Of a stretch of DNA of 58,000 bases, positions 7,669 through 58,000 are shown piece by piece. The DNA comes from Kofleriaceae bacterium (GTDB taxonomy: Bacteria > Myxococcota_A > Polyangia > Haliangiales > Haliangiaceae): NCBI GenBank assembly GCA_046597055.1, contig JBKJLC010000026.1, positions 1 through 58,000 on the forward strand, read 5' to 3'. The notes under the pieces were generated by a model that saw only the letters and a program-made list of their open reading frames with translations, ran no database searches and was not told where the DNA came from. Each line of letters begins with the position of its first letter. Positions within the stretch are counted from its first letter, which is position 1. Position numbers and translations under genes: made by a program.

Positions 7669-7953
7669 GTGCGACAGCGGCTCTCCGTTCTGATCCTTGG
7701 CCTGCTGGTCGCCTGCGATGGACCCACCGTGGCCGCGTTCGACGCCGCCGCTCCCAACGATGGCGCCACCGACGCCTCGCCCTGCGGCGTCGCGCCGGCC
7801 GACCCCGACGTGTGTCCCGCGGTGTGCGGCCCGGGCGCCGGCGGCGATATGGCCGCCTGCTGCCAGCAAGTGGGTCCAGGCGAGTGCCTGGTCTGCGCGA
7901 CCGCCGATGACGGCGGCCCCACCTGGCAGCTGGCAACGATCGATTGCTTCTGA
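7669..7953 (+). CDS. Small Cys-rich lipoprotein
   Basis: Signal peptide with lipobox LLVAC and 8 further Cys. Confidence 0.55.
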   Translation: MRQRLSVLILGLLVACDGPTVAAFDAAAPNDGATDASPCGVAPADPDVCPAVCGPGAGGDMAACCQQVGPGECLVCATADDGGPTWQLATIDCF

Positions 7954-8072
7954 CGGTCGGGCGACGCCCGGCGGCTCCGCGGCGCAGGAAGCGCTCGATG
8001 GCGAGGGCGGCCTCGGTCGGCGCCGCCCGCCTCCAGCGCCAATCGACCCCCAGGAGCATGTGACGCCGCGCC

Positions 8073-8606
8073 TCAGTTGGCGGCTTCCGCGAGGTCGCGT
8101 TCGATCGCGTCGAACGTGGTGTCGACGCCCTGGGTGTACGGGTTCCAGTCGAGGTCGGTGGTACTGGCCATCGCGTCGATGTTCTTCGCGAGCTGGTCTC
8201 GTCGCGCCCGGATTCCGGTGGCCGCGTCCTTGGACGTGGGGTCGGTCTTGGTCGTCAGTGTGGCCAGCGACGCGTCGAGCTTCGCCAGGCGCTCCGTCAC
8301 GGCCGCGGCGTACGCGACGCGCGCTTCGGTGAGGTTGCCCCGCGCCTGTCCGAGCTGTTGCTGCTGCTGCTCGACGACCTTCTGTCGGTCCGCGAGTGCC
8401 TGCTGCTCACGCAGAAGGTCGCGCTTCTGCTGCTCGAGCTGCTCCTGGTTCTTCGTCAGGTCGGTGCTGGTGGCGGCGACGGCGGCCTGGGCCTTGCGCA
8501 GGTCTTCAGCGGCCTCATCCGTCGCGGCGGAGTTGTTCTTGTTGCCGCACGCCGCGACGAGCACCAGGGGGGTCGAAAGCAGGAGGCGCGTGAGGGAGTT
8601 GCGCAT
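8073..8606 (-). CDS. Coiled-coil lipoprotein
   Basis: MRNSLTRLLLSTPLVLVAAC lipobox and a Q/E-rich heptad region. Confidence 0.75.
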   Translation of the reverse strand: MRNSLTRLLLSTPLVLVAACGNKNNSAATDEAAEDLRKAQAAVAATSTDLTKNQEQLEQQKRDLLREQQALADRQKVVEQQQQQLGQARGNLTEARVAYAAAVTERLAKLDASLATLTTKTDPTSKDAATGIRARRDQLAKNIDAMASTTDLDWNPYTQGVDTTFDAIERDLAEAAN

Positions 8607-41498: not shown

Positions 41499-41924
41499 AT
41501 GGTTGCCACTCCGCTCCGCGACGCCGTGGTCTCCGTCTTCACCCGGCTGTCGCACGACGGCAGCGCGATCGACGAGCTGCGGCCGCTCTACGCGCACGAC
41601 GTCCGCTTCGTCGATCCGATCCAGGCGGTCGTGGGCGTCGACGAGTTCATCGCGATCAACCAGCGGCTGGCCGCGCGGGCCCGCGGGCTCAGCTTCCTGG
41701 TCGATCGTGTGGTCGGTGACGACGCCGAGTTCTTCCTGACCTGGCGGCTGCGGGTGCGGCCGCGGATCGGCCCGCTGCTCGAGGTCGACGGCGTCTCGCA
41801 CCTGACCGGGCGCGACGGCAAGGTCCAGGCGCACCGCGACTACTGGGACCTGGCCAACTTCCTCGCCAGCGGGGTGCCCGGCGGCGAGCGCCTGCTGCGC
41901 TTCGCGCTCAAGCCACTGGCCTGA
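41499..41924 (+). CDS. SnoaL-like/NTF2-fold protein
   Basis: [27 protein letters not shown]. Confidence 0.88.
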
Positions 41925-42159
41925 GGCCGCTCGCGAGCGAGGAGGGCGCCCTTAGCTCGACTTCTCGGCGGTCGGTCCGGAGCCCGTCGCACGGCTGCGG
42001 ATGGTTACTCCAAGTGCGCCGGGCACCCGGCTTTCGGCCGGGCTTGGCGTGATTTTTTGCGCGGCCGGGGTGCCACGCTTCGCTTGGCTCGGAGGCGATC
42101 GGCGTTGAGGTCGCCGCCGCGAGGCACTTCCTTCGCGGGCGGGCCGCGCGTACGGCGGC

Positions 42160-43175
42160 GCGGTGCTCGGGGCCGATGTCACCCACGACCGCGGTGCCGG
42201 TGTGGATGCCGACCCCGATCGCGAGGATCACCTCGCCGCGCGCGGCCCGCCGCTGGTTCAGGTCGGCGAGCGCGTCGAGCATGTCGAGCGCGCAGCCGAC
42301 CGCGGCGGTGGCGTGATCGGGCTGGGCGAGCGGCGCGCCGAAGTAGACCAGGATGCCGTCGCCGATGAACTTGTCGAGCCTGCCGCCCCGCGCGAACACG
42401 ACCTCGACCATGACGCCGAGGTACTCGTTGAGCAGCGCCGACACGTCCCCGGCCGACAGCGTCTCGGCCAACCCGGTGAAGCCGCGGATGTCGGAGAACA
42501 GCACGCTCACGTCGCGCGGCTCGGGCGCGGTCAGGGTCGAGCCGGCGGCGGCCAGCCGGTCGGCGACCGCCGGCGAGAAGTAGCGCGACAGCCGGGTCCG
42601 CGCCGCCTGCTCGCGCGTCACCGCCGCGACGATGCGGCCGAGCCAGCGCACCGCGAAGCCCGCCATCATCGCGGCCGCGCCGAGGATCATGAGCGCCCCC
42701 ACGATGCGGTCGGGCTCACCCGCCGCCGCGAGCAGCCAGCTCGACGCACCGGCCGCGCCCACCGCGGTCATCGCCGCCATGCGCACGTCGAGCGTGAAGA
42801 CCGACGCGAACACCAGCGCCGCCATCGGCCCGATCGTGAGCGCGGCCGGCACCCCGGCGTCGGGCGCGTGCCGCATCGTGCTCAGCGTGATGACGTGCAG
42901 CGCGACCACGTCGAGCAAGGTCGAGGACCGCAGGCCCCGTCGGGCCCCGACCCGCAGCACCACCCGCGGAATCGCGGCGATCCCGGCGTAGCCGGCGACC
43001 AGCGGCAGCGCCGCCTGCGCCTCGGCCCGCTCGGCCACGAACGCGAAGTACGTCAGCGTGGCGAGCCAGACCAGCGCCGTGAACGGCGCGGATTGTGATG
43101 GGCGACCGAGGCCACCGCCGCGACCTCGCGCGCGACCTCACGCTGGTACGCCCCCTCGTGCACCATGCCGCATGG
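42160..43175 (-). pseudogene. Membrane class III adenylate/guanylate cyclase, C-terminally truncated, N-terminus frameshifted
   Basis: [20 protein letters not shown] and [20 protein letters not shown], then divergence into non-homologous sequence. The essential GDxVNxAxR motif is absent. Confidence 0.75.
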
Positions 43176-43207: not shown

Positions 43208-43996
43208 TCATCCGGGCGGCGGCGCCGGTGGCAGCGCGACGTACGAGTTGTCGAGCTCGTCCTGGACCACACGGATCTCACCAGCGACCGGCGCGACCCG
43301 CAGCGCGCCGGCGAGGACCCGGCTGCGGAACTTCCAGCCGTCGGCGGGCTTCAAGCGCTCACCGAGGCGGGCCAGCCCGGGCGCGGTCAGCGGCGCCTTC
43401 TGCACGCTGAACGAGATCATCGCGTAGGCGGCGCCGTCGGGCCCGAGCAGCTCGTGCACCGGATGGCCGGCGTCGAACACGAACGTGCCGTTGCCCGGGA
43501 CCACGTGGATCCGGTACGGCTTCTGGGCGTCGCCGGCATCCAGGACCGAGAACTCGAGGCGACCGATCTTCCGCACCTCGAGGCCGCCCACCACGCGCGC
43601 CGGCTCGAGCGCCTCGGTCGCGCCCTCGATCCGGTCGACCGCCCAGTACCGCGGGCCCTTCACGATCACCCGGGTCGCCCCCAGCTGGTCGGCCAGCCGC
43701 CCCGGATCGAGCGCCCGGAACTGCGGGTCCGGACAGTCGTTCAGGCCGGCCGAGCTGTAGATGTCGACCGCCAGCCGCAGCCCGCTGCGCTCGGCGATCA
43801 AGATCTCGCAGTAGCGCGCGCCCCGCATCGCGTCGGCGCGCGCCGTCGGCGCGGCCGGCGCCGCGCGCTCCACCGGCTGCGCGGGTGCCGCCGGCGGCAC
43901 CGGCGGCCGCGGCGGGCCACACGCCGCGAGGGCGACCGCCAGCGCGAGCGCGGGTACCCGTCGATCGCCCGGGCCAGGTCGAGATGAACAAGCCAT
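43208..43996 (-). CDS. Hypothetical lipoprotein
   Basis: Lipobox LAAC; RGARYCEIL, GLNDCP, GPRYWAVD, VVQDELDNSY. Confidence 0.7.
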   Translation of the reverse strand: MACSSRPGPGDRRVPALALAVALAACGPPRPPVPPAAPAQPVERAAPAAPTARADAMRGARYCEILIAERSGLRLAVDIYSSAGLNDCPDPQFRALDPGRLADQLGATRVIVKGPRYWAVDRIEGATEALEPARVVGGLEVRKIGRLEFSVLDAGDAQKPYRIHVVPGNGTFVFDAGHPVHELLGPDGAAYAMISFSVQKAPLTAPGLARLGERLKPADGWKFRSRVLAGALRVAPVAGEIRVVQDELDNSYVALPPAPPPG

Positions 43997-44166
43997 CGTG
44001 CCCTGGTAGCAGGTCGCGACCGGGCTGCGCAGGTCGATCCCGCGCCGGGTCGGCCAGAATCGCACCCGCACGGCCGCTGCATCACGTGGTGGCAGCGGTG
44101 GCGCGGCCGGGCCGGGGTACCGCCGAGGGTGAAACCGGCCACGCGGTCGAGTACCTTCGCGCCACC

Positions 44167-45090
44167 GTGACGGAGGCAGCGCTCAACGTGGGCTACCGCG
44201 CGCTCGCGGTGATGGACGAGGTGCAAGGTGCGCAGGTGCCGGTGCACCTGCTGTATCCGACCGAGGCGCCGGCGCGGACGGAGGCGTTCGGCCCGTACCA
44301 GCTCGCGCTCGCGCGCGAGGCGCCGGTGGTGGGCGAGAGGCTGCCGCTGGTCGTCGTCTCGCACGGGACCGGCAGCACGCCCTGGGTGCAGCGGGTGCTG
44401 GCGGCGCAGCTGGCCCGGGCCGGGATGGCGGTCGTGTTGCTCGAGCATCCGGGCAACTCGCGGAGCGACGACGCGCTGGCGGGGACGCCGGCGAACCTCG
44501 CCAACCGGCCCCGCCACGTGCGGCTCGCGCTCGACGCGGCGTTCGCCGATGCGGAGGTCGGTGCGCGACTGGTACCGGATGCGGCGGCGGTGGTCGGGCA
44601 CTCGCTCGGTGGCTACACCGCGCTCGCGGTCGCCGGTGGTCGGCCGATGGCGCTGCCGGACCAGGCGCCCGATGGGATCGCGCGGCCGGTGCCGGTGGTC
44701 GCCGATCCCCGGGTGCGCGCGGTGGTGCTGCTGGCGCCGGCCTTGCCGTGGTTCATGGCGCCGGGCGCGCTGGCGGACGTGCGCGTGCCGCTGTTCGTGC
44801 GCACCGGCGAGCGCGACGAGCACGCGCCGCCCGGGTACGTCGAGCAGATCCTGCGCGGCCTCCCCCCGGATGCGCGCCTGGACTACCAGATCGTGCCCGG
44901 TGCCGGGCACTTCGGGTTCATGGCGCCGTTTCCGCCCGCGCTGGCGCGACCCGGCTTCGCGCCCGCGCAGGATCCGCCGGGCTTCGACCGCGCCGGGTAT
45001 CAGCAACAGCTGGGCGCCGAGGTGCGCGGGTTCGTGCGGACCGCGCTGACGCCCCGGGTCGGCGGCCCCGGCGCCGCGAGTCTCACGTAG
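44167..45090 (+). CDS. Alpha/beta hydrolase (predicted dienelactone hydrolase type)
   Basis: LVVVSHGTG, GHSLGG, GERD, GAGHFGF. Start is 44167 or 44188. Confidence 0.88.
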   Translation: MTEAALNVGYRALAVMDEVQGAQVPVHLLYPTEAPARTEAFGPYQLALAREAPVVGERLPLVVVSHGTGSTPWVQRVLAAQLARAGMAVVLLEHPGNSRSDDALAGTPANLANRPRHVRLALDAAFADAEVGARLVPDAAAVVGHSLGGYTALAVAGGRPMALPDQAPDGIARPVPVVADPRVRAVVLLAPALPWFMAPGALADVRVPLFVRTGERDEHAPPGYVEQILRGLPPDARLDYQIVPGAGHFGFMAPFPPALARPGFAPAQDPPGFDRAGYQQQLGAEVRGFVRTALTPRVGGPGAASLT

Positions 45091-45149
45091 GATGCTCGTC
45101 CGGGGCCTCGCGACCGGACCGTGCGCCCGCGGGTGACGCGACCCTCCTC

Positions 45150-48131
45150 ATGATCGACTCCCCGCCGCCTGCGCTCGCCGGTCCGCTGCACCTGATCCAG
45201 CGGCTGTATCTGGCCGAGGACCTGGTCCGGCGCCGGCGCGCGGACGAGGAGCGGCGGCACGTGGCGTCGCAGCGCTCGGCGCGGGTCGATCCGAACCCGC
45301 ACCAGATCGACGCGGTGATCTTCGCGCTGACCCGGCTCGGCGACGGCGGGTGCATCCTGGCCGACGAGGTCGGGCTCGGCAAGACGATCGAGGCCGGCCT
45401 CGTGATCGCGCAGCTGCGGGCCGAGGGCGCGCAGCGGGTGCTGGTGGTGACGCCCAAGGCGCTGCTCGGGCAGTGGAAGCAGGAGCTGTTCAGCCTGTTC
45501 GCGATCGACGCGCACGAGGTCGCCCGCGGCCCCGACGGCTTCGCGGGGACCGGGGTGTTCCTGGCGGCGCGCGATCTGGTCGGCAGCGAGGCGGGCGCGG
45601 CCCGGCTCCAGGCGGCCGAGCGCTTCGACCTGTGCGTGATCGACGAGGCCCACGAGGTGTTCGCCGGCATCTACAAGCGCTTCGATCGCCACGGCTCCAA
45701 CCGCGAGGACTCACCGATGGCGCGGATGGCCGGGCGGTTGTCGCAGGCGATCCGCGACAGCGGCACGCCGGTGCTGCTGCTGACCGCGACGCCGATCCAG
45801 AACTCGCTGCTCGAGCTGTGGGGCCTGGTCCACTACATCGACCCGACCGGGACCCTGCTCGGCGATCTGTCGACCTTCCGCGAGCTGTTCTGTCCCAGCG
45901 ATCCGCGGGTGCTGGCCGAGGGCCAGGCTCACGAGCTGCACCGGCGTCTCGCCACCGTGCTCAAGCGGACGCTGCGGCGGCAGGCGCAGGAGTTCATGCG
46001 CGAGCCGTTCATGGGTCGCCAGGCCCGGCTGTTCGACTACGCGATGAGCCCCGAGGAGCGCGCGCTCTACGACGACCTCACCAGCTACCTGCTCGAGCCG
46101 ACCCTGCACGCGTTCCGCGGCAACCAGCGCAAGCTCTTGCTGATCGGCTTCCACCGACGGATGGCGTCGTCGATCGCCGCGCTCGGCAAGAGCCTGGGCC
46201 GGGTCGCGGCCCGGCTGCGCGAGCTGCGCGACGGCAGGCCGCCCGACGACGCCGCCGACCGCGACGCCCTGCTCGGCGATCCCGACGACGACGAGGCCGG
46301 CGACGACGCCGCCGGTCCCGCGCCGCCGGCGGCCGCGGCCAGCATCGGCGCCGAGCTGGCCCGGGTCGAGGGCTTCGTGGCCCGGGCCCGCGCGCTGCCG
46401 ACCGACAGCAAGGCCCGCGCGCTGGTCAGCGCGGTGCGCCTGGTGATGGATCAGGCCGAGGTCGGCAGGAGCAAGGGCAAGGTCGTGATCTTCACCGAGT
46501 TCCTGGCGACGCAGGAGTACTTGCGCCAGCTGCTCCTCGACAGTCGCCTGGTCGGCGACGGTGACATCACGCTGTTCCGCGGCAGCAACGACCTGCCCCG
46601 CCAGCTCCAGGCGCTGGCGCGCTGGGGCGACGAGGTCGGCAGCAAGATGGACCCGGCCAGCCGGCCCAGCCCCGACGTCGCGATGCGGCTCGCGCTGGTC
46701 CACGAGTTTCGCACGGCGTCGCGGATCCTGATCTCGACCGAGTCCGGGGCGAAGGGCCTCAACCTCCAGTTCTGCGACACCGTCATCAACTACGACCTGC
46801 CGTGGAACCCGCAGCGCATCGAGCAGCGCATCGGGCGCTGCCACCGCTACGCCCAGCAGCGCGACGTCACCGTCATCAACTTCATCGCGCGCGACAACGA
46901 GGCCCAGCAGCTCACGTTCGAGATCCTGAGCCAGAAGCTCGACCTGTTCGGCACCGTGCTCGGCGCCAGCGACGAGGTGCTGCACCGCCCGGGCCCGATC
47001 GCGTCGGAGTCGCTGGTCAGCGCGGTCGGCGGCGACTTCGAGGCCCAGCTCAACCGGATCTACGATCGGGCCCGCAGCCACGACGAGGTCGTGCGCGAGC
47101 TGCGCGAGCTGCGCGACGCCATGGACAGCAAGCGGCGCGAGTTCGAGAGCGCCCAGCAGCGGACCGACCAGGTCATCCAGAGCCGGTTCGATGCCTCGGT
47201 GCGCGAGGTGTTCGCCCGCATCCAGGAGGCGCTGCCGCGCGAGCTGGCCGAGTTCGACCGCCAGGTCCAGGACGTGGTGACCGGCTACCTCGACGCGCTG
47301 GGGGTCGGCTACCGGTTCGAGCGCCAACCCGAGGGCGCCGAGCTGGTGGTCCCGCCCTCGCCGCGGCTGCCGGCCGGCCTCGCCGACGGGGTCCACTGCC
47401 TGGTCGGCACGCCGATCAAGGGGTCGCCGCTGACCCAGCTGCACCTGGGCCACCCGCTGGTGCTGGCCGCGCTGTCCGAAACCCGGACAGCCGCCCGCGC
47501 CCAGCGCTTCGTGGTGACCGTCCACGCCGGGACGCCCGAGGGGCAGGCGCTGCGCGGCCAGCGCGGGCGGCTCCGGCTGGTCCGGGTGCGCTACCGTGGG
47601 TTCGAGACCACCGAGCAGCTGCTGCCGGTGGTCGTGCTCGACGGGTCGCCCACGCCGCTGCCGGTCGAGCTGGCCCGCGCGCTGCTGGCTGCGCCGATCG
47701 CCGATGCGCCGGCGCCGGCGCCGCGGTCGGCGGTGACCGACGCCGAGCTGGCCGACGCGCTCGACGAGCTGCGGTTCCTCGATCCCAGCGGCGCCAGCGA
47801 GCAGCCGCGGTTCGAGCGCACGCTCGAGCAGGTCGAGCGGTTCATGAGCGACCGGATCTTGTTGCTCGAGCGCCGGCGCGACGCGGTGGTCGTCACCCTG
47901 GGCAGGGCCGAGACCGCGCGCGACGCCGCGGTCGGCGCCGAGCAGCGCGACCGCGCCGAGGCCGGCTTGCGCCGCGCCCAGGTCGAGCTCGAGCAGCTCG
48001 ACGCCGACCTCGCCCGGCTGCGCGCCGGCGACGACGCGACCTACCAGCGCTGGCGCCAGCGCACCGAGGAGCGCCGGTACCCGGCGCCCGAGATCGAGGC
48101 GCTGCTCGACGCCGAGCTCGTGATCACATGA
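45150..48131 (+). CDS. SNF2-family helicase/translocase with RapA-like C-terminal extension
   Basis: PHQ, ILADEVGLGKT, DEAH, LTATP, GLNLQ..NYDLPWNPQRIEQRIGRCHRY. Confidence 0.93.
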   Translation: MIDSPPPALAGPLHLIQRLYLAEDLVRRRRADEERRHVASQRSARVDPNPHQIDAVIFALTRLGDGGCILADEVGLGKTIEAGLVIAQLRAEGAQRVLVVTPKALLGQWKQELFSLFAIDAHEVARGPDGFAGTGVFLAARDLVGSEAGAARLQAAERFDLCVIDEAHEVFAGIYKRFDRHGSNREDSPMARMAGRLSQAIRDSGTPVLLLTATPIQNSLLELWGLVHYIDPTGTLLGDLSTFRELFCPSDPRVLAEGQAHELHRRLATVLKRTLRRQAQEFMREPFMGRQARLFDYAMSPEERALYDDLTSYLLEPTLHAFRGNQRKLLLIGFHRRMASSIAALGKSLGRVAARLRELRDGRPPDDAADRDALLGDPDDDEAGDDAAGPAPPAAAASIGAELARVEGFVARARALPTDSKARALVSAVRLVMDQAEVGRSKGKVVIFTEFLATQEYLRQLLLDSRLVGDGDITLFRGSNDLPRQLQALARWGDEVGSKMDPASRPSPDVAMRLALVHEFRTASRILISTESGAKGLNLQFCDTVINYDLPWNPQRIEQRIGRCHRYAQQRDVTVINFIARDNEAQQLTFEILSQKLDLFGTVLGASDEVLHRPGPIASESLVSAVGGDFEAQLNRIYDRARSHDEVVRELRELRDAMDSKRREFESAQQRTDQVIQSRFDASVREVFARIQEALPRELAEFDRQVQDVVTGYLDALGVGYRFERQPEGAELVVPPSPRLPAGLADGVHCLVGTPIKGSPLTQLHLGHPLVLAALSETRTAARAQRFVVTVHAGTPEGQALRGQRGRLRLVRVRYRGFETTEQLLPVVVLDGSPTPLPVELARALLAAPIADAPAPAPRSAVTDAELADALDELRFLDPSGASEQPRFERTLEQVERFMSDRILLLERRRDAVVVTLGRAETARDAAVGAEQRDRAEAGLRRAQVELEQLDADLARLRAGDDATYQRWRQRTEERRYPAPEIEALLDAELVIT

Positions 48132-49285
48132 CCAGGCCCGAGGGAGACGACGTGGCGCTCAAACTGCTCCATACCGCCGACTGGCACCTCGGGCGCCGGT
48201 TCCCGCGCTTCGACGAGGCCGACCAGCAGACGCTGTCGCGGGCCCGGCTCGACGTGCTCGCCAAGATCCTGCTCGCGGCCGACCACCACGGCGTCGACGC
48301 GATCCTGTGCGCCGGCGATCTGTTCGACGAGCCTGCGCCCGATCGCGCGTGGTGGCAGCCGGTGGCGACCTTGCTCGGCGCCAGCCGCAGCCGCCGGCCG
48401 GTGTTCCTGCTGCCCGGCAACCACGATCCGCTGCAGACCGGCTCGGTCTACCACCCCGATCACGGGTTCCGCCGGGCGCTGCCAGCGTGGGTGCACGTGG
48501 TCGATCGCGACGACTACAGCCACCGCCTCAACGAGGTCGCGATCCTGCACGCCCGGCCGTGTCGGTCGCGCGCCGGTCAGGACGACCCGGCGCTGGCGCT
48601 GCCCGCGCGCGAGGCGAGCGACGAGACGATCCGGATCGGCATGGTCCACGGCAGCACGTTCGACGCGGTCGACTGCCAGACCAACTTTCCGATCGCGAAG
48701 GACGCGGCGGCCCGGCGCGGCTTCGACTACCTCGCGATCGGCGACACCCACAGCTTCCGCGACGTGCCCCCGGGCGCGAAGCCGCCGGTGGTCTATCCGG
48801 GCGCGCCCGAGGCGACCTCGTTCGGCGAGCCCGACGCCGGCAACGTGGTCGTGGTGTTCGTCAGTCGCAACCGCAAGGTCCTGTTCCGCCCCGAGCGGGT
48901 CGCCAACTGGACGTGGAGCGACCGCACCGTGCGCTCGCTGGCCGGGCTGCGCGAGCTGCGGGCCGAGCCGACCCTGGCCCGGATGGTGCTGCGGTTGACC
49001 GTCGACGTGCGGCTGACCGCGCCCGAGCTCGAGGAGGCCGAGGCGATCTTGACCGAGCTCAAGGGCACCAGCGCCGCCCACGGCCGGGTCGGCATCCTCC
49101 AGCTCGACCGCCGCAGCCTGGCCCTCGACAGCCGCGGGATCGAGGCGGCGCTCACCGATCTGCCCGACGTCCTGCGCGCCACCTTCGAGCGGCTGCAGGC
49201 GCTGGAGACCGGCGAGCAGGCCGAGGTCGCCAAGGCCGCGCTGTTCCACCTCTACAAGCTGGTCCGCGACGCGGAGGCCTCGTGA
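48128..49285 (+). CDS. Mre11/SbcD-like metallophosphoesterase nuclease
   Basis: HTADWHLG, AGDLFD, PGNHD, HG, YLAIGDTH, YPGAPE. ATGA overlap with the SNF2 stop. Confidence 0.92.
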   Translation: MTRPEGDDVALKLLHTADWHLGRRFPRFDEADQQTLSRARLDVLAKILLAADHHGVDAILCAGDLFDEPAPDRAWWQPVATLLGASRSRRPVFLLPGNHDPLQTGSVYHPDHGFRRALPAWVHVVDRDDYSHRLNEVAILHARPCRSRAGQDDPALALPAREASDETIRIGMVHGSTFDAVDCQTNFPIAKDAAARRGFDYLAIGDTHSFRDVPPGAKPPVVYPGAPEATSFGEPDAGNVVVVFVSRNRKVLFRPERVANWTWSDRTVRSLAGLRELRAEPTLARMVLRLTVDVRLTAPELEEAEAILTELKGTSAAHGRVGILQLDRRSLALDSRGIEAALTDLPDVLRATFERLQALETGEQAEVAKAALFHLYKLVRDAEAS

Positions 49286-52200
49286 GGCTGGTCAAGCTGT
49301 CGGTCCAGCGCTTCCAGTGCATCGAGACCGCCGAGCTCGAGCTGGGCCCGGGCCTCAACGTCCTCTACGGGCCCAACGACCTGGGCAAGTCGAGCCTGGC
49401 CTGGGCGATCCGCGCGGTGCTGCTGCTGCAGCACAGCTCGTCGGTCCACGAGCGGTTCGTGTCGTGGTACGGCGGCGGCGAGCCGCGGGTGGTGCTGACC
49501 CTCGCCGACGACGACGAGCGCTACTGGCGGGTCGCCAAGACCTTCGGCGGCTCGGCCGGCCGCTCGCTGCTCGAGAGCTCCAAGGACGGCACGACCTTCG
49601 TCACCGAGGCCCAGGGCCGCCAGGTCGACGACAAGCTGCGCGAGCTGCTGCGCTGGGGCGTGCCGAAGCCGGGGGGCACCGGCGGCGCGCGCGGGCTGCC
49701 GACCAGCTTCCTGGCCCAGGTGCTGCTCGCCGAGCAAGACGACGTGCGCAAGGTGCTGTTCGGCGGCTCGCTGGCCACCGATGGCGACGAGTCAGGCCGG
49801 CTGCGGCTCACCGAGGCGCTGGGCGCGCTCGCGCAGGATCCGCTGTTCAAGCGCGTGCTCGACGACGCCCAGGCCTGCGTCGACCGCGCGTTCACGCCGA
49901 CCGGGCGCAAGAAGAAGACCGCGGGCTCGCCGTTCACCGACGTGATCCGCCAGCTCAAGGAGCTGCAGGAGCAGCACGCCGACCTCGACGCCAAGGTGAA
50001 GGAGAGCGGCCTCGCCGAGGCCAAGATCCGCGAGCTCATCGCCGAGCGCGACGGCGTCGAGCACAGCTTGCACGAGGCCCGAGCGCTGCTGGCCGCGGGC
50101 CAGCGCCAGCTCGCGGCGCGGATCCAGCACGAGGCGCTCGGTCAGCAGCTGCGCGGCTTCCAGGCCGAGCTCCAGCGCACCGACGAGCTGCAGCAGGCGA
50201 TCGCGGTGGGCGGGCGCGAGCTCGAGCAGCTCGCCGCGTCGAACGCCGCGGACGCGACCGCGATCGCGGCGGCGGGGGCGACCGCGACCGCGGCCGAGGC
50301 CCGGCTCGCCGAGGCTCGAGGGAGTCTCGACGCGCTCGCGCACGGCGACGCGTCCGCCGACCGGACGAAGCTGGCGCTCGAGGCCGAGCAGCAGGCGGTC
50401 CAGGCCCGCGTGCACGCGGCCGAGCGCACGGTCGAGCGCACCGACGACGCGCTCCGGCGGGCCGGGCTCGCGGCGCGCGCGCTCGCGACCGCGGCCGAGG
50501 TGGCCGGGCAGCACGCCGAGACCGCGCGGCAGGCGGAGCAGACGAGCGCCGCGGCGGGGGCCGAGGCGGCGGTGGCCCAGGCCGCGCTCGACCAGGCGCG
50601 CCAGCGGCTGCGCGACCTGGCCAGCGGCGACCGCGCCCAGGCCCGCCAGCTCCGGCAGCAGGAGCTCGCGAACCAGCGCCTGACCCGGGGCGCGGCGCGG
50701 ACCGCGCTCGCGCATGCGCTCGAGCGGACCAGCGCGGTCGGCGCGCTGATCGACAAGGCCCGCGCGGCCGGCGGCGCGCACGCGGCCGCGGCCGCCGCCA
50801 TCACCACGCTGACGACCGCGGTCGCCGCCGACCAGGCCGGCCTGGCCGCGCACGACGGCGCGCTGCGCAGGCTGCGTCAGCTCGAGCAGGCCGGCGCGCT
50901 GCGCCAGGCGCGGGACACGCTCGTCACCGCCCGCCAGGCGGTGGCCGCAGTCGAGGAGGATCGCGGCCGCGCGCGCTTGCTGCGGCAGGAGGTCGTGGCC
51001 CTGCGCGCGAGCCTGCGCGCCGGGCTGCCGCTCGATCGCGACATCGAGGCGCTGCGCCAGCACCGCGACGATCTACGGATCGCGGAGGCGCGGCTCGGTA
51101 GCGTCTCCGTGGTCGTGCGTCCGCGCCGGGCGCTGACCCTGCGCACGACCCGCGACGGTGTGGCCGACCCGGCGCGCACGATCGACGAGTCGACGCCCGT
51201 GAGCGCGCACGAGCTGCTGGTGATCGAGCTCGACGATCTGGTGGCGCTCGAGGTGACCGCGGGCGCCGAGGAGGTCCGGTCGGTCGCCGCCGACCTGCGG
51301 GCGCGCTGGCAGGCGGCCGGCGCGCCGGTGCTGGCCGCCTGCGGCGTCGCGACCGTCGAGCAGCTCGCCGAGCTGCGGCGCGGCGCCGACGGGGTGGGGC
51401 GGACCATCGACGACAAGGAGCGCGAGGCGCGGCTGGTCGACGCGCAGGCCGCGCAGCGCACCGGGCCGAGCGATCTGGCCGCGCTCGAGGCCAGCGTCAC
51501 CGAGCTGGAGGCGGCGCTGGCCGGCGCTGACCTGGCCGCGCTGCTGACCGAGCTCGTCCGGCTGGGCCCGACCTGGGCGGCGACGCTCCGACAGCGCAGC
51601 ACCGCCGCGCAGCGCGAGCGCGAGGCCCACGTCGCCCAGCTCGACCAGCGCCTGGGGCAGCTCGCCCGCGCGGAGGCCCAGCTCGAGGGCCTCGCCCGCG
51701 AGGCCGCGGCGCTCGCGCTCGAAGCGGGCCAGCAGGAGGCCGGGCTCGGTGGCGCCTGGTCGTCGGTCGCCGATCGCGAGCGCACCGCGCTGGCCGCCGC
51801 CGACCGCGCGCTGGCCGAGCTCGATCAGCAGCTCGCCGCGGTCGTGGACGCGGGCGACGAGGCGGAGACCCGCGCCCGCGCCGACGTGGCCGCCCGCGAA
51901 CCGACCGCCGCGGCGGCCCACGCAGCGCGCGAGCGCGCGGCCGCGGTCGCCAGCACCGCCCGTGACGCGGTGGTCGCCGCGACCACGACGCTCGAGGCCG
52001 CGCGCGCCCAGGCCCGGGACCTCGATGGGGAGGGACGGTGGAGCGCGGCGCTGGCCGCGACGGTCCCGCGGCTCGACCTCGGCCCCTGGCAGGACGCGGC
52101 CACGGCGGCGGTCGCCGCGCGTGACGACGCCCACGCCGGGCTCGACCAGGTCCGCCAGCGGCTCGACCAGGCCACCCGCCAGCGCGCCGAGACGATCTCG

Positions 52201-53175
52201 CTCGCGCGCGCCGCGGTGGCGGCCGCCGAGGCGGCGGTGGTGGCGGCCCGGACCACGCTCGACGGTCTGCAGACCCGCGCGCAGCGCGAGCGTGAGCGGC
52301 TCACGCTGCTGCAGATCGAGGTCGCCGAGCGGCGGGTCACGCTGGCCGGCACCGACGTCGACGAGGCGCGCCGCGCGATTCCCGCGCTCACCGCGCAGCG
52401 GCAAGCGCTCGAGGCCGACGCCGCGGCGATCGACCCGGCCGAGGTCGCCCGCCGCGACGCGACCGTGGCCCGGCTCGCCGGCCTGCATCGCGACACCGAG
52501 GACGGTCTGGCCCGGGCCCGGGGCGCGCTCGAGCAGGTCGGCGGCGCGATCGTGCGCGAGCAGCTGCGCGAGCTCGATCAGGCGATCCTGCAGCTGCGCG
52601 ACCGCGAGCGGGGGCTCGAGCTCGAGTTCGACGCCTGGAAGCTGCTGGTCGAGACCCTGCGCGAGACCGAGTCGACCGAGGGCCAGCACCTCGGCCGTGC
52701 CCTCACGGTCCCGGTCAGCCGGCGCTTCAGCCAGCTCACCGGCGGACGCTACGATCACCTGGAGCTGGGCGCGCACCTCGAGGCCGGCGGCCTGCGCGCG
52801 GCCGGCGACGTCCGCGACATCGCGGTGCTGTCGGCCGGCACCCAGGACCAGCTCGCGACCCTGCTGCGCCTGTGCATCGCCGAGCAGCTGCGCAGCGCGA
52901 TCGTCCTCGACGACCACCTGAGCCAGAGCGATCCCGGCCGGATCGCCTGGTTCAACGGCACCCTGCGCACCGCGGCCCAGCAGGTCCAGATCATCTTCAT
53001 CACCTGCCGCCCGCTCGAGCTGCTCGCCGCGGCCGAGTTGCCGGGCGCCGGCGAGGCCCAGCGCACCGGGACCGCCGGCCTCACCCGCGCGGTCGACCTC
53101 GGCCAGGTGATCCGCCGGTTCGCGCCGGATGCGCCGATGGTGGACGCGGCCCGCGCCGGGACGCGCCCGAGGTAG
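49282..53175 (+). CDS. Rad50/SbcC-like ABC ATPase with long coiled coil and no CxxC zinc hook
   Basis: Walker A GPNDLGKS, signature LSAGTQDQ, Walker B IVLDD, FITC. RBS GGAGG and GTGA overlap with the nuclease stop. Confidence 0.92.
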   Translation: MRLVKLSVQRFQCIETAELELGPGLNVLYGPNDLGKSSLAWAIRAVLLLQHSSSVHERFVSWYGGGEPRVVLTLADDDERYWRVAKTFGGSAGRSLLESSKDGTTFVTEAQGRQVDDKLRELLRWGVPKPGGTGGARGLPTSFLAQVLLAEQDDVRKVLFGGSLATDGDESGRLRLTEALGALAQDPLFKRVLDDAQACVDRAFTPTGRKKKTAGSPFTDVIRQLKELQEQHADLDAKVKESGLAEAKIRELIAERDGVEHSLHEARALLAAGQRQLAARIQHEALGQQLRGFQAELQRTDELQQAIAVGGRELEQLAASNAADATAIAAAGATATAAEARLAEARGSLDALAHGDASADRTKLALEAEQQAVQARVHAAERTVERTDDALRRAGLAARALATAAEVAGQHAETARQAEQTSAAAGAEAAVAQAALDQARQRLRDLASGDRAQARQLRQQELANQRLTRGAARTALAHALERTSAVGALIDKARAAGGAHAAAAAAITTLTTAVAADQAGLAAHDGALRRLRQLEQAGALRQARDTLVTARQAVAAVEEDRGRARLLRQEVVALRASLRAGLPLDRDIEALRQHRDDLRIAEARLGSVSVVVRPRRALTLRTTRDGVADPARTIDESTPVSAHELLVIELDDLVALEVTAGAEEVRSVAADLRARWQAAGAPVLAACGVATVEQLAELRRGADGVGRTIDDKEREARLVDAQAAQRTGPSDLAALEASVTELEAALAGADLAALLTELVRLGPTWAATLRQRSTAAQREREAHVAQLDQRLGQLARAEAQLEGLAREAAALALEAGQQEAGLGGAWSSVADRERTALAAADRALAELDQQLAAVVDAGDEAETRARADVAAREPTAAAAHAARERAAAVASTARDAVVAATTTLEAARAQARDLDGEGRWSAALAATVPRLDLGPWQDAATAAVAARDDAHAGLDQVRQRLDQATRQRAETISLARAAVAAAEAAVVAARTTLDGLQTRAQRERERLTLLQIEVAERRVTLAGTDVDEARRAIPALTAQRQALEADAAAIDPAEVARRDATVARLAGLHRDTEDGLARARGALEQVGGAIVREQLRELDQAILQLRDRERGLELEFDAWKLLVETLRETESTEGQHLGRALTVPVSRRFSQLTGGRYDHLELGAHLEAGGLRAAGDVRDIAVLSAGTQDQLATLLRLCIAEQLRSAIVLDDHLSQSDPGRIAWFNGTLRTAAQQVQIIFITCRPLELLAAAELPGAGEAQRTGTAGLTRAVDLGQVIRRFAPDAPMVDAARAGTRPR

Positions 53176-53326
53176 GTGCGAGGGGTAGCACTGGCTGCGC
53201 TTCAGCGCGCCGGCGCATGAGCCAGAACACTACGGCGTGTCGGGGCGCCACAGTGTGCACGTCGGCAGGCCCTGTCATTCCGCCAGCATCGCGCGGGCAC
53301 GCCGCTCGCAATGGATGTGAGGCACC

Positions 53327-54544
53327 TTGCCTCCGCTCACCTACCTGACCCCGACCCTGCCGCTGCTGGTCGCCATGCTCACGGCTGTCGCGGGGTGCGG
53401 CGGCGGGGACGGGGCCGGGGCCGACCAGATCGTCTACGAGCCGTGGGTCGACCCCGGCACCAGCGAGGAGTTCCTCGGCTTCGACGTGCTGCCGGAGCTT
53501 GAGCTGCTGGTCGAGCCCGACGCGGTCGCGGCCCTCGAGCGCAACCCGCGCGCGTACGTGAAGGCGACCATCGTGTTCAAGGGCCAGCGCTTCGGCCCGG
53601 TCGGGCTCAAGGTGAAGGGCCAGAACTCGTTCTTGCCGTTCTCGCAGAAGCCGTCTCTGCGGATCAACGTCGACGAGTACGTCGAGGGCGTGTCGTTCTA
53701 CGGGCTGCGCGACCTCACGCTCAACAACATGAAGAGCGACCCCTCGATGATGCACGAGCGGCTCGCGTACCTGGTCGCCCGCGAGTCGGGGATCCCGGCG
53801 TCGCGCTGCAACCACGCGCTGCTCACGGTCAACGGCCAGTTCTACGGCGTGTACGCCAACGTCGAGACCGTCAAGAAGCGGATGATCGGCGGCTGGTTCG
53901 ACAACAACGATGGTCCGCTGTTCGAGGCGACCGACGTCGACTTCACCGCGCAGTACACCGGCGGCTACCAGCTCGAGTCGGGCCCCGACGACCGCAGCCT
54001 CATCTCCGGCCTGGCCCAGGCGCTGAGCGCGGCAAATCCGGACCAGGCGATCGCCGCGGCCGGCCAGTACGTGGACATCGCGCACTTCCAGCAGTTCTGG
54101 GCGATGGAGTCGATCGTGGGTCAGTTCGACGCCTTCCCGTACAGCCTGCCCGGCGACGACTATTTCCTCTACGCCGATCCGACCAGCAACCAGCTGTGGT
54201 TCATCCCGTGGGGCATGGACGAGACCTTCTTCGCCGCCGACTTCTCGCCGGTCCAGGTCCAGTCAGTGCTCGCCACCACCTGCAAGGCATCGCCAGCCTG
54301 CTACCAGGGCTACGTCGATCGCACCTGGGACCTGCTGGCGATGACCGAGGCGATGGGGCTCGACGCACAGCGCGCGCAGATCGAGACCGCGCTGGCCCCG
54401 CACCTGGCGCGCGACACGCGCAAGCCGCAGACCGCCGCGGTGCTCACCGAGGGCCAGACCCAGCTCGGCTACTTCATCCGCGGCCGCCGCGAGATCCTCA
54501 CCGGGTTCCTGCCGCCGCCGAGCCCTCAGCTCGGCGGCCCGTGA
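53327..54544 (+). CDS. CotH kinase-family lipoprotein
   Basis: Lipobox VAGC, VGLKVKG, LTLNNMKSDPSMMHERLAY, YGVYANVE, FIPWGMDETF. Confidence 0.88.
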   Translation: MPPLTYLTPTLPLLVAMLTAVAGCGGGDGAGADQIVYEPWVDPGTSEEFLGFDVLPELELLVEPDAVAALERNPRAYVKATIVFKGQRFGPVGLKVKGQNSFLPFSQKPSLRINVDEYVEGVSFYGLRDLTLNNMKSDPSMMHERLAYLVARESGIPASRCNHALLTVNGQFYGVYANVETVKKRMIGGWFDNNDGPLFEATDVDFTAQYTGGYQLESGPDDRSLISGLAQALSAANPDQAIAAAGQYVDIAHFQQFWAMESIVGQFDAFPYSLPGDDYFLYADPTSNQLWFIPWGMDETFFAADFSPVQVQSVLATTCKASPACYQGYVDRTWDLLAMTEAMGLDAQRAQIETALAPHLARDTRKPQTAAVLTEGQTQLGYFIRGRREILTGFLPPPSPQLGGP

Positions 54545-55632: not shown

Positions 55633-57687
55633 TCAGTGCGCGGGCGGTGCTGACGACGCGCTCGGATCGACCGGGGCGTCCTTGGGCGGGTAGAAGAACG
55701 ACAGCGGCCGGCGGATGAAGCGGCGCAGCACCGCGCCCACGAGCGTGGTGCGCGCGCTGGCCGGCACGTCGCGGGCGCGCAGCGCGATCACCAGCGCCAG
55801 GAGGAAGCTGACGCCGAAGTTGAGCAGGCCGATCACCGCGATGCCGACGCAGGCCCAGATGATCGGGGTCCAGCCGACCATCTCGGTACCGACCGACGAG
55901 ATCGCCAGCGTCAGCGCGCCGCTCGACAGGGTCACGTGGCGGACGTCGACCGGCAGGCCGAAGAACCGGGCCAGCACCGGGGTCATGCCGAGGAAGATGC
56001 CGAGCGAGACGCTGCCGCCGATGCCGGCGGCGTGGCGCTCGAGGCTCCGGGCGATGCGCGCCATCCGCGGCCGGCCGAACCGCTTGCCGAGCCGGTGGTG
56101 CTCGATCGCCTCGGGCAGCCGGCGGTACACGATCCAGTTCTCGAACCAGCCGGCGACCAGGCTCGACATCCACAGCAGCACGCCGGTGAGCGCGGCGAAC
56201 GCGATCGTCCCCGAGCCCAGCGGATCGAACGACGCGATCACGCCCTTGGCGGTGCCCGGATCGAGGAACGGTTGGCCGGCGATCTGTTGCCAGCCCAGGT
56301 CGAACACCAGCGCCACCACGATCACGGTCCCGACGTTGCCGAGCGCCGCCGCGAACTGCGAGCGGCTGATCCGCGCGATCAGCACGACCAGGTCGTCGAG
56401 GCGATCGGGGCCGGCGCCATCGCGGATGGTGCCGGCCAGCGCGGCCGCGGTCATCGACGGCTGCTTGGTGGCGAGCGTGAACCCGAGGAACTGGATGATG
56501 AGGAAGCTGGCCGCGTAGGCCACCGACGAGAACAGGCCGTCGATGAACAGCGGGAAGTGCTGCCACTTGATGAGGAACTTGGTGATCGCGGTGCCGGCGG
56601 TGACCACGCCGCCGCCGGCGGCTGAGGCCAGCATCTGCCAGTACTCGCGGCGCGACGACGTGACGTAGTGCTCGCCGGTGCGGCCGGCGCGCTCGATCAC
56701 CTTGCGGGCCAGCAGCCGCAGGTTGTCGGACATCAGCTGGCCGAAGCTGCGCTCGCCGACCACGCCGCGGGCCAGCCCGGCGATCAGCTCGCGGATCTCG
56801 GTCGGGTGGGTCTCGCCGCTGGTCGCCAGCGGCAGCAGGGCCTCGATCCGGGTCAACCCGCGCGCGATCGCGTCGAGCGTGTACACGACCTCGACCGAGA
56901 CGCCGAGATCCTCGAGCTCGGCGTGGATGCGCTCGAGCTCGGCGCGGCAGGCGTCGACCAGCAGCGGCAGCGCGGGCAAGGCGGCGCGGCCGAGCTGGAA
57001 GAACGGCGAGTCGTGGACGCTGCGGCCGGTCCGGTGGCTGCGCAGCGCGTCGCCCATACCGAGCGCGGCGATCCGGGTGCTGATCAGGCCGACCGCGTCG
57101 GCGGCCGGGCCATGCAGCGGCACGCCGACCCCGGCCAGGGCGACTCCGAGCCTCCGGATCAGCGGATCGATCTCGGGGCCGATCCATTCGTGGTCGCCGG
57201 CCGCGCGCACGATCCGTCCGGCCAGCTCGGCGAGGTCGTGCTCGTCAGGCGGGGTCGGCAAGAACCGGTCGGCCAGCCGGTCGGTGGTCTCGGCGAACAG
57301 GCCGCGGTCGTTGGGGAGCCCGACCACCGAGAACAGCCGCTCGGCGGTGGTCTCGGCGAACACCGCGCGCAGGCACGCCAGCAGGCGGGCCCGCGCGGCC
57401 GGCACCCGCTCGACCGCGGAGACCACCAGCTCGAGCCGACCGACCGGGCTGGTCGACGGGCCGGCGACGATGAACCGGCCCAGCTGCTCGATCGCGACCA
57501 GCCGATCGGTCAAGGGCGCGTCGGCGTTGCACTTCGCCAGCAGGACCCGCAACAACGTGGCCGCGCGGCCCTCGGGGACCCCGAGCGCCGCCAGGAACTC
57601 GGCGCGGCCGGGGAACGCCTCGTCGGTCTCGGTGGCGAGCCGTCGGCCTGCGTCGTCGGGCCGCGCCCGATGGGGTTCACCGCGCAC
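55633..57687 (-). CDS. Gcr-family ('site-specific recombinase'-annotated) membrane protein; start uncertain
   Basis: LLARKVIE..GEHYVT..SAAGGG, FTLATKQPSMTAA, RSQFAAALGN, DVRHVTLSSG, LNFGVSF; multiple TM helices. Confidence 0.85.
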   Translation of the reverse strand: MRGEPHRARPDDAGRRLATETDEAFPGRAEFLAALGVPEGRAATLLRVLLAKCNADAPLTDRLVAIEQLGRFIVAGPSTSPVGRLELVVSAVERVPAARARLLACLRAVFAETTAERLFSVVGLPNDRGLFAETTDRLADRFLPTPPDEHDLAELAGRIVRAAGDHEWIGPEIDPLIRRLGVALAGVGVPLHGPAADAVGLISTRIAALGMGDALRSHRTGRSVHDSPFFQLGRAALPALPLLVDACRAELERIHAELEDLGVSVEVVYTLDAIARGLTRIEALLPLATSGETHPTEIRELIAGLARGVVGERSFGQLMSDNLRLLARKVIERAGRTGEHYVTSSRREYWQMLASAAGGGVVTAGTAITKFLIKWQHFPLFIDGLFSSVAYAASFLIIQFLGFTLATKQPSMTAAALAGTIRDGAGPDRLDDLVVLIARISRSQFAAALGNVGTVIVVALVFDLGWQQIAGQPFLDPGTAKGVIASFDPLGSGTIAFAALTGVLLWMSSLVAGWFENWIVYRRLPEAIEHHRLGKRFGRPRMARIARSLERHAAGIGGSVSLGIFLGMTPVLARFFGLPVDVRHVTLSSGALTLAISSVGTEMVGWTPIIWACVGIAVIGLLNFGVSFLLALVIALRARDVPASARTTLVGAVLRRFIRRPLSFFYPPKDAPVDPSASSAPPAH

Positions 57688-57748
57688 GAGCCGTGGAACA
57701 TAGCAGAGGCCCTCGCCACGGGTAGCGGCGACCGAGCGGGAGCGGGCC

Positions 57749-58000
57749 TCAGGGATGCAAGACGCAGCCGCCGAGCACCGCACCTTGCCACTTGGCGAGC
57801 ATCGCGGCCTTGAAGTCCGCGAGCGCAAACGTGTGCGAGATGTGGGGCCGCAGCAGGCCGGCTTCGACCCACCGCAGGATCTGGGCCAGCCGCGGCGCGC
57901 GCAGCGATGGTTCATTCACGGTCGCGATCACGGTGGGACAGCCGAGCACGTCGACGCCCTTCATCATGATGAGGTTGGTCGGCAGCACGTTGGCGTTGGG
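57749..58000 (-). CDS. NADPH:quinone oxidoreductase-family protein, C-terminal part (runs off window)
   Basis: LPTNLIMMKGVDVLG..GLLRPHISHTFAL..GGCVLHP, typical of an MDR C-terminus. Confidence 0.75.
   Translation of the reverse strand, partial: PNANVLPTNLIMMKGVDVLGCPTVIATVNEPSLRAPRLAQILRWVEAGLLRPHISHTFALADFKAAMLAKWQGAVLGGCVLHP

Follow-up and report, generated by a model that had tools for sequence, protein, structure and literature searches.

A co-inherited cassette of SNF2 helicase, Mre11-fold nuclease and hook-less Rad50-like ATPase in soil bacteria: a candidate defence or DNA-end-processing system

The locus of interest lies in a 58,000-nucleotide (nt) stretch of a Kofleriaceae genome (contig JBKJLC010000026.1; hereafter "the window") with a GC content of ~72%. 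Positions 45150–53175 of the window hold three intact, + strand genes that overlap in tandem and are translationally coupled: (i) 45150–48131, encoding a 993-amino-acid (aa) SNF2-family helicase/translocase of DrmD/RapA-like type, (ii) 48128–49285, encoding a 385-aa metallophosphoesterase nuclease with a predicted Mre11/SbcD fold, and (iii) 49282–53175, encoding a 1297-aa ATP-binding cassette (ABC) ATPase of the SMC/Rad50-like kind, with an SbcE-like architecture and no zinc hook. The helicase and nuclease genes are joined by an ATGA stop/start overlap on the + strand at 48128–48131 (ATG at 48128, TGA at 48129–48131; context CACATGACC), and the nuclease and ATPase genes by a GTGA overlap, also +, at 49282–49285 (GTG at 49282, TGA at 49283–49285; context CTCGTGAGG). 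A preliminary description of this DNA had drawn attention to the trio and to both overlaps, and the reading frames, codon-position composition and junction sequences all agree with it.

The three open frames carry a clear coding signature: GC content at third codon positions (GC3) is 0.97, 0.96 and 0.97 for the helicase, nuclease and ATPase genes, respectively, against 0.47, 0.48 and 0.53 at second positions. Since GC3 drops to just 0.59 in the in-frame extension 5' of position 45150, the ATG at 45150 is a sensible start. The codon-position signature, together with conservation in relatives (see below), leads us to treat the genes as real. A scan of positions 44800–53500 revealed no sigma-70-like promoter site, and a single terminator-like hairpin within the SNF2 gene, which is no more than is found in shuffled sequences. 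Direct and inverted repeats around the cassette were limited to low-identity, GC-rich matches.

SNF2 helicases recur in bacterial defence: they are found in DISARM, Zorya (ZorD), Dpd and Hma, and in association with BREX (BrxH). Pfam identifies SNF2-rel_dom (77 bits) and Helicase_C (59 bits) in the first protein of the trio. The ATPase core (approximately residues 47–600; 45288–46949, +), delimited by these Pfam stretches and by invariant motif residues, carries GLGKT (residues 75–79), DEAH (165–168), TATP (212–215) and QRIGRCHRY (559–567, i.e., QxxGRxxR); an alignment of 35 sequences shows no variation at the Walker A, DEAH, TATP and motif VI residues. The best PADLOC match is DrmD (PDLC02619; 396 bits, residues 41–693), followed by BrxHI/HII, HmaA (149 bits), DpdE and ZorD, so that the kinship with defence-linked SNF2 proteins proposed in the preliminary description holds. 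The NCBIfam scores all fall below the respective cut-offs: 396 bits for DISARM_DrmD_b (NF038318; cut-off 950), 225.7 bits for DISARM_DrmD (NF038317; cut-off 610) and 131 bits for RapA (NF003426; cut-off 576). Because the NF038317 match aligns residues 523–972 to positions 563–1008 of the 1021-position model, the C-terminal domain of the helicase is common to DrmD-type helicases.

The AlphaFold model of the helicase (mean predicted local distance difference test, pLDDT, 79.8) consists of a two-lobed core, a long helix, and a C-terminal beta module with a helical hairpin. The C-terminal domain (approximately residues 720–993; 47307–48128, +) was delimited by the model blocks, secondary structure and the DrmD alignment; it comprises a beta-rich module and a long helical hairpin, in blocks with pLDDT values of ~81–94. 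The best fold match of the model in the PDB is Escherichia coli RapA (E-value 1.7e-23), while ZorD appears at rank 33. The protein begins ~45 residues ahead of the ATPase core and thus lacks RapA-like N-terminal domains. The helicase is a DrmD/RapA-like bacterial SNF2 protein and an equivalog of neither, and no close paralogue of it exists in the window's own genome.

The second protein of the trio matches Pfam Metallophos (49 bits) and scores 71.3 bits against TIGR00619 (sbcd), just under the cut-off of 77.65. This match is limited to residues 11–107, and sequence likeness to SbcD/Mre11 is confined to approximately the first 100 residues. Its AlphaFold model has a pLDDT of 91.8, and the top 50 Foldseek matches to the model are all Mre11/SbcD structures, the best being the Mre11:Rad50 complex of Thermotoga maritima (3tho_B; E-value 4.4e-16); P. 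furiosus Mre11 and E. coli SbcD are also among the top matches. The metal ligands are D18/H20, D64, H99/D100, H174 and H208. Among 23 aligned sequences, H20, D64, H99 and D100 are invariant, and D18, H174 and H208 are kept in at least 90%; a GDTH motif takes the place of GHxH, the usual form of that phosphoesterase motif. As modelled, the protein has the Mre11/SbcD fold and keeps the motifs of a two-metal phosphoesterase. A conserved pair of C-terminal helices (RALxHLYxL) appears, in the model, to occupy the site of the Rad50-binding helices of Mre11. PADLOC returned no match for the nuclease, and PADLOC v2 contains no model for it.

In the third protein, Pfam matches are limited to the P-loop N-terminus (AAA_23, 32.7 bits; SMC_N, 32.3 bits). 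The Walker A motif (GPNDLGKS, residues 30–37), the Q-loop (Q152) and the signature motif (LSAGTQDQ; LSxGT) are invariant in 13 family members. The Walker B motif is IVLDD (D1210, D1211), with LDD rather than DE in 13/13 members, and the H-loop position is occupied by Arg in 11/13 and by His in 2/13 (TCRP in the window copy, R1243). No CxxC zinc hook is present anywhere in any of the 13 trio ATPases. Alignment blocks and invariant columns place the N-terminal half of the head at approximately residues 1–215 (49282–49926, +) and its C-terminal half at approximately residues 1080–1270 (52519–53091, +). Between the coiled-coil arms lies a central non-coiled domain at the arm apex (approximately residues 580–700; 51019–51381, +), in which P583, A603, L605, D625, R675 and W676 are invariant.

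Comparison of the ATPase with named families gave little beyond the P-loop. A sequence search of the PDB returned no match; Rad50 NCBIfam models score 15–16 bits, against cut-offs of 700 or more; PADLOC LmuB scores 25.6 bits over residues 14–94, which is P-loop level; and no JetC match occurs among the 25 families listed out of the 29 that PADLOC matched. The nearest ESM Atlas clusters of the window ATPase carry AAA_23 and AAA_27, the latter in 47–92% of members. AAA_27, which we take to be the Pfam family of YhaN, matches 3/13 trio ATPases (best E-value 3.8e-5), a set that does not include the window's own. From its sequence, the protein appears to be Rad50-like in architecture, yet hook-less and with an unusual catalytic site. 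Of the two relevant claims in the preliminary description, that all catalytic motifs are present is correct for the helicase and nuclease and partly so for the ATPase (given the LDD Walker B, the Arg H-loop and the lack of CxxC), and that the ATPase is Rad50-like stands for the architecture but not for canonical Rad50/SbcC. The combination of a DD Walker B with Arg at the H-loop position suggests that ATP hydrolysis would be slow, favouring a long-lived clamped state.

The trio is inherited as one cassette. Searching with the nuclease yielded 12 true relatives (11 in myxobacterial bins and one in a Bryobacteraceae bin; a thirteenth match was spurious), and in 12/12 the SNF2 gene lies directly upstream and the ATPase gene directly downstream. 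Here and below, all relatives of the cassette come from metagenome bins. An alignment-based nuclease search, which used generic SbcD motif patterns on 2 of 64 collection parts and served only for sampling sister families, added three trios. A search with the ATPase alignment gave 77 loci (one genome per species), ten of them on contigs already found, and an exhaustive search for nuclease relatives gave 113 representative clusters at E-values of 1e-30 or lower. Gene order and tight junctions are the same in 16/16 of the first loci; the SNF2/nuclease overlap is 4 nt in 11/16, and the nuclease/ATPase overlap is 4 nt in 9/16 and 1 nt in 5/16. Sixty-five loci were testable for gene retention (i.e., at least 4300 nt of upstream sequence and the ATPase N-terminus present; a gene was counted as kept at 80% coverage or more). 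The nuclease is kept in 62 of these, the SNF2 protein in 61, and both in 60, giving a whole cassette in ~60 soil-bacterial genome bins.

The exceptions are few. In locus L144, SNF2 residues 13–782 abut nuclease residues 119–377, an arrangement that looks like a deletion, and L165, L175 and L178 are decayed or frameshifted copies. Locus L170 (a Nannocystaceae bin, 2573–8545) is the sole trio-clade member in which an intact nuclease and ATPase occur with no SNF2 gene; the genes upstream of its nuclease encode an FG-GAP repeat protein and PolB, a DNA polymerase of family B. In seven further loci the matches are split over two or three frames, which are frameshifts or long-read errors. A separate case is seen in L003/L110 (same contig), where the SNF2 gene (~5980–8998 of L003) is broken into two frames around residue 800 and the nuclease and ATPase genes are intact; this split is either a frameshift or an assembly error.

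Across 54 intact loci, the pairwise distance matrices of the proteins are strongly correlated: r is 0.93 for SNF2 and nuclease, 0.86 for SNF2 and ATPase head, and 0.84 for nuclease and ATPase head, and 0/999 permutations gave values as high. Because the three proteins co-diverge, the helicase is a stable member of the cassette and not a swappable neighbour. Co-divergence is no evidence of binding, since linked inheritance alone would yield the same result.

The window's genome also encodes a separate canonical SbcD (159.8 bits against TIGR00619; contig C196). Two questions raised in the preliminary description, namely whether the trio recurs across genomes and whether a canonical sbcCD exists elsewhere in this one, thus have answers: all three genes are kept in 60/65 testable loci, and an SbcD is present. 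In a tree of 89 SbcD-like proteins (a quick IQ-TREE build), the 16 trio nucleases form one clade with a Shimodaira–Hasegawa-like approximate likelihood ratio test (SH-aLRT) support of 100 and a long stem. This clade sits inside a 57-row group (support 99) that includes nucleases from pairs lacking an SNF2 gene; canonical SbcD proteins, that of the same genome included, fall outside it.

These SNF2-less pairs are numerous. The alignment-based search recovered many loci, at 28–36% identity, in which a similar nuclease gene is followed by one for an ATPase of ~880 aa. Like those of the trio, the pair-family ATPases have a DD Walker B and a T-C-H/R motif and contain no CxxC (22/22), and alignment of the trio and pair-family ATPase profiles with hhalign gave a probability of 100% and an E-value of 3.9e-66 over 847 columns; the central region of the one aligns to that of the other. 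SNF2-less pairs also occur on 110 PLSDB plasmids (63 predicted conjugative; 65 records from Rhizobium), where they are annotated "DNA repair exonuclease" and are common on alphaproteobacterial plasmids. On one of them, Sphingomonas panacis plasmid NZ_CP014169 (locus L104, 5021–10767), the pair directly follows AbiEi/AbiEii. In two Corynebacterium loci (L079, 5868–11152; L035, 5496–11215), a different SNF2 gene (DUF3670 plus SNF2-rel_dom) and a small open reading frame (ORF), a SWIM zinc finger in L035, lie directly upstream of the pair on the same strand. This is an independent association of an SNF2 protein with a nuclease-ATPase pair.

The closest studied precedent for such pairs is SbcE/SbcF (YhaN/YhaO) of Bacillus subtilis. 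SbcE has no CxxC, possesses a unique central domain, and is encoded next to the SbcD-like SbcF; the two function in double-strand-break repair and competence, with the loss of SbcE leading to break sensitivity and lower transformation, and they are reported in all Gram-positive genomes analysed (PMC2811018). The trio shares with the published SbcE/SbcF locus an SbcD-type nuclease gene followed by one for a hook-less SMC-like ATPase with a central domain between coiled-coil arms (PMC2811018); it differs in that SbcE/SbcF has no SNF2 partner, the gene after the pair being yhaM, which encodes an RNase. The trio is also patchy and mobile, with longer arms (1297 aa, versus ~880 aa in SNF2-less pairs). 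The sequence evidence makes it likely that the nuclease-ATPase pair of the trio belongs with the hook-less SbcE/SbcF-like pairs and not with SbcCD proper. Placement of both proteins in the SbcE/SbcF family is likewise likely, the likeness being drawn through the published description (PMC2811018).

SbcCD/Mre11-Rad50 itself resembles the trio in several respects: the nuclease fold and metal ligands, an ABC ATPase with a split head and long coiled coils, and adjacent, coupled genes. The trio differs in having no zinc hook (0/13), a DD Walker B and an Arg H-loop in 11/13; in the order of nuclease before ATPase; in a nuclease that scores under the sbcd cut-off and forms a separate clade; and in the added SNF2 gene. 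The missing hook and the sub-cut-off family score rule out a canonical SbcCD. Of the known machines, the cassette would come closest in operation to SbcCD or SbcE/SbcF, supplemented by a motor.

The cassette is unevenly distributed. At E-values of 1e-30 or lower, 10 of 100 further genomes from the same family encode the nuclease, as do 4/16 from the same genus and 9 of 400 in a phylum-wide sample. The SNF2 protein (E-value 1e-100 or lower) was found in 11 of the 100 same-family genomes; ten of these are the nuclease-holding genomes, with adjacent coordinates, and the match in the eleventh, an 86%-complete bin, is a fragment at the end of a contig. In a tree of 75 trio nucleases (built with FastTree alone), 38 Myxococcota and 28 Acidobacteriota rows interleave; the remainder include one row each from Planctomycetota, Binatota and Armatimonadota and two from Pseudomonadota. 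The phylum label changes ten times on this tree, against a possible minimum of five and a mean of 26 under shuffling. Near-identical copies are assigned to different phyla in L146/L147 (Terriglobia and Alphaproteobacteria) and L105/L106 (Vicinamibacteria and Myxococcales), and a Fimbriimonadales label occurs among near-identical Acidobacteriota copies (L154, L157, L159). Such cases are either very recent transfers or mis-binned contigs; as they could be binning errors, we count two phyla as firm. On the strength of this pattern the cassette is accessory and mobile. Searches of plasmid and phage collections gave no member of the trio clade, the 110 plasmid and three phage matches all being <60% identical to the window nuclease, and the cassette is not bordered by an integrase or by flanking repeats in the window.

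The surroundings of the cassette vary: flanks are not conserved among 15 relatives. Defence-type Pfam matches encoded beside the cassette in several of the relatives include (i) PglZ with BrxC/D, (ii) Mrr, (iii) a second superfamily 2 (SF2) helicase, (iv) RloB with AAA_21, (v) AbiEi/AbiEii, (vi) a DUF4011-AAA_11/12-MTES_1575 helicase-nuclease, (vii) TerB_N/TerB_C with BrxC/D and DEAD, and (viii) SIR2, Uma2, HNH and RhuM. The 58 loci with a whole cassette yielded 186 flanking ORFs, of which 150 were sampled and the first 126 scanned with PADLOC (E-value 1e-10 or lower); the control consisted of 98 ORFs, called in the same way, from ten random 15-kb stretches of the window's genome. PADLOC matches were obtained for 32/126 flank ORFs and 11/98 random ORFs (Fisher p 0.01). 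Many matches in both sets are generic (Ser/Thr kinases, sigma-54 activators, helix-turn-helix proteins), and after post hoc removal of these classes the contrast becomes 22/126 versus 2/98. Specific defence neighbours are present in 14 of the 46 loci represented: BrxL, BrxHI, SngA/B, ZacB, JetC/D, Cas5g, Cas6, Cmr3, AbiEi/Eii, AbiLi, PDC-S27, a type II restriction enzyme, and a methylase with WYL. Given the single control genome and the non-independence of ORFs within a locus, the enrichment is supportive and does not amount to proof. The preliminary description had pointed to defence-island enrichment as a way of probing its proposal; the enrichment is seen in the relatives' flanks, and the window copy itself lies outside any defence island.

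A role as sensors of foreign DNA has lately come to light for SMC-like and Rad50-like ATPases, with Lamassu and Wadjet as examples. Both resemble the trio, according to the accounts of them, in pairing a long-armed SMC-like ATPase with a nuclease effector in defence islands, and in being thought to read DNA ends or topology and not methylation (PMC12663957, PMC10586767). Lamassu is described as sensing viral DNA ends through SMC-like proteins derived from repair machinery (PMC12663957). The trio differs from both: no LmuA/LmuC or JetA/B/D is encoded in the window, the effector is a Mre11-type phosphoesterase, and an SNF2 motor is added. Membership of Lamassu or Wadjet is ruled out by the missing partners, with the LmuB match limited to the P-loop.

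With DISARM the likeness lies in the helicase, of which DrmD is the best PADLOC and NCBIfam match, C-terminal domain included; the difference lies in scores far under the equivalog cut-offs (396 versus 950 and 226 versus 610 bits) and in the partners, here a nuclease and an ABC ATPase. No DrmA (DUF1998/MZB), DrmB, DrmC (PLD) or methylase was found among 12 Pfam-scanned neighbours or 29 PADLOC-scanned window ORFs, and no DISARM partner is conserved in the flanks of the 15 relatives. Equivalog score and absence of partners rule out DISARM membership, and membership of the RapA family is ruled out by score (131 versus 576 bits) and by the lack of N-terminal RNA-polymerase-binding domains.

Hma, whose HmaB and HmaC are a methylase and an ATPase, offers a further comparison. 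The published system, a defence against phage T4 built on an SNF2 helicase fused to a nuclease, is alike in combining an SNF2 motor with a nuclease for defence, and HmaA is among the PADLOC matches of the helicase (149 bits); as described there, it is unlike in that the nuclease is of the PD-(D/E)xK type and fused to the helicase, with HmaB and HmaC in addition (PMC11232893). In the trio, the nuclease has the Mre11 fold, is a protein apart from the helicase and comes with an SMC-like ATPase of its own; no methylase is present. PADLOC holds no system corresponding to the trio, and gave P-loop-level matches for its ATPase. The full texts searched contain no description of a system combining an SNF2 protein with SbcD-like and SbcC/SbcE-like proteins, so the statement in the preliminary description that no named system has this composition is sustained in PADLOC and in that literature.

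Five observations—inheritance as a cassette, patchy spread across phyla, variable flanks enriched in defence genes, kinship of the helicase with defence helicases, and a separate canonical SbcD in the genome—suggest to us that the trio may be a methylation-independent, ATP-driven nuclease machine that acts against foreign (phage or plasmid) DNA, a reading in which we place middling confidence. By analogy with SbcCD/Mre11-Rad50, the ATPase would dimerise through its heads upon ATP binding, with the central domain probably substituting for the zinc hook as the dimer contact at the arm apex. A nuclease dimer would be carried at the base of the coiled coils through the conserved C-terminal helices, and would cut DNA ends or hairpins clamped by the ATPase. 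The SNF2 protein would translocate on double-stranded DNA, either delivering the clamp-nuclease to ends and blocked structures or clearing bound proteins. As no methyltransferase accompanies the cassette in the flanks of the 15 relatives, self and non-self would be distinguished by structural cues in the DNA (free ends, replication intermediates, hairpins) and not by modification, a principle also proposed for Lamassu and Wadjet. A more specific version—a mobile, three-protein immune system in which the DrmD-like SNF2 protein scans DNA and passes free or protein-capped ends of invading DNA to the hook-less clamp-nuclease for destruction, without reference to a methylation mark—is tentative. 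If true, it would make the trio a bacterial counterpart of eukaryotic MRN plus Fun30/SMARCAD1, and a third line of SMC-type immunity beside Lamassu and Wadjet.

Several results weigh against a role in defence. The neighbours of the window copy are ordinary (an alpha/beta hydrolase, CotH, a Zn-dehydrogenase, a PF10136 recombinase and an adenylate-cyclase-domain protein), and PADLOC, applied to 31 window ORFs, reports just a generic cyclase ~2 kb upstream and DarT/DarG ~42 kb away. The enrichment test is weak, with one control genome, dependent ORFs, 126 of the 186 flank ORFs scanned and many generic matches, and the sharper contrast of 22/126 versus 2/98 depends on the post hoc filter. For four of the six phyla, the evidence is limited to one or two metagenome bins each. 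No basis for self/non-self discrimination was identified. The only studied architectural relatives, SbcE and SbcF, are described as acting in double-strand-break repair and competence (PMC2811018). Finally, the DUF3670-type SNF2 gene upstream of an SNF2-less pair in two Corynebacterium loci fits a general helicase-nuclease partnership in repair as well as it fits defence.

These points lead to the main rival, namely that the cassette is an accessory module for processing double-strand breaks or hairpins, with the pair working like SbcE/SbcF in repair or in the handling of incoming DNA. The SNF2 protein would then act at the lesion much as RapA acts on stalled polymerase, removing RNA polymerase or other proteins, and large soil genomes would gain and lose the cassette as an optional extra. 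The SbcE/SbcF precedent speaks for this, SbcE being itself hook-less and its loss described as sensitising cells to breaks and lowering transformation (PMC2811018), as do the SbcE architecture of the trio ATPase and its homology to the ATPases of SNF2-less pairs, the RapA structure as the best solved fold match of the helicase, the metabolic flanks of the window copy, and the Corynebacterium pairs with their own, different SNF2 upstream. It fits less well with a cassette that is patchy even within the genus (4/16), that interleaves across phyla on the tree, and whose unconserved flanks hold an excess of defence genes; the sequence of the helicase also scores higher against DrmD (396 bits) than against RapA (131 bits), and a canonical SbcD is already in the genome. 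We consider this repair role rather unlikely. Were it correct, the cassette would provide the first example in bacteria of a Mre11-Rad50-like complex coupled to a remodeller-type motor, as in eukaryotic resection.

A further alternative is that the three genes are a loose, co-transferred set, in which the SNF2 protein and the nuclease-ATPase pair act independently, or that the cassette serves a mobile element, for instance in competition between plasmids or other elements. Sister-family pairs without SNF2 do reside on the 110 PLSDB plasmids (63 predicted conjugative, all <60% identical to the window nuclease), one of them directly after AbiEi/AbiEii; L170 has an intact nuclease and ATPase with no SNF2 upstream; and the C-terminal domain of the helicase is common to DrmD helicases that have no SbcD partner, and so need not be a docking module. 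Set against this, SNF2 and nuclease co-diverge at least as tightly as nuclease and ATPase, the ATGA overlap is kept in 11/16 loci, and the SNF2 subfamily occurs solely beside the nuclease in the 100-genome sample, save for one contig-end fragment. Moreover, the plasmids and phages in the collections searched carry no trio-clade member, and neither integrase nor flanking repeats delimit the cassette in the window. Taken together, this evidence makes a loose or element-serving set quite improbable. Chance adjacency and spurious ORFs are ruled out by codon-position GC and conservation of the locus.

Whether defence or repair is its task, the cassette offers a compact, three-protein system for testing the role of an SNF2 motor in the recognition or resection of DNA ends, and could show how Rad50-like arms operate without a zinc hook. 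With 113 clusters and 77 loci, it is also frequent enough to matter for the annotation of soil genomes.

The remainder of the window, and of the genome, contains several other features. The stretch is present in three soil-metagenome DNA runs of one study, and the 12 sequencing runs found include no RNA run. The sole tRNA gene of the window is a tRNA-Ala at 200–274. A complete DarT-DarG pair (1233–1880 and 1881–2951, both +; PADLOC 213 bits for DarT and 447 bits for DarG) lies ~1 kb from it, and may form a small, integrated defence or toxin-antitoxin islet, ~42 kb from the trio. Upstream of the cassette, a gene for an adenylate/guanylate-cyclase-domain protein (41908–43038, −) has a moderate match to PycC, the Pycsar cyclase (76 bits). 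Upstream of this cyclase gene is another, encoding 287 aa (43208–44071, −), for which Pfam and PADLOC gave no match; no Pycsar effector was recognised. Downstream of the cassette, at a distance of 2.4 kb, is a gene of the PF10136 "site-specific recombinase" family (55633–57915, −; 604 bits), with no repeats linking it to the cassette. Elsewhere in the same genome, MZB domains are confined to two contigs: C201 (9710–10021) and C262, where a second SNF2-like gene and an MZB/DUF1998 domain occur within 8 kb of each other (~16360–17766 and 24061–24372). The C262 locus may be DISARM-like or Druantia-like, and unrelated to the trio.

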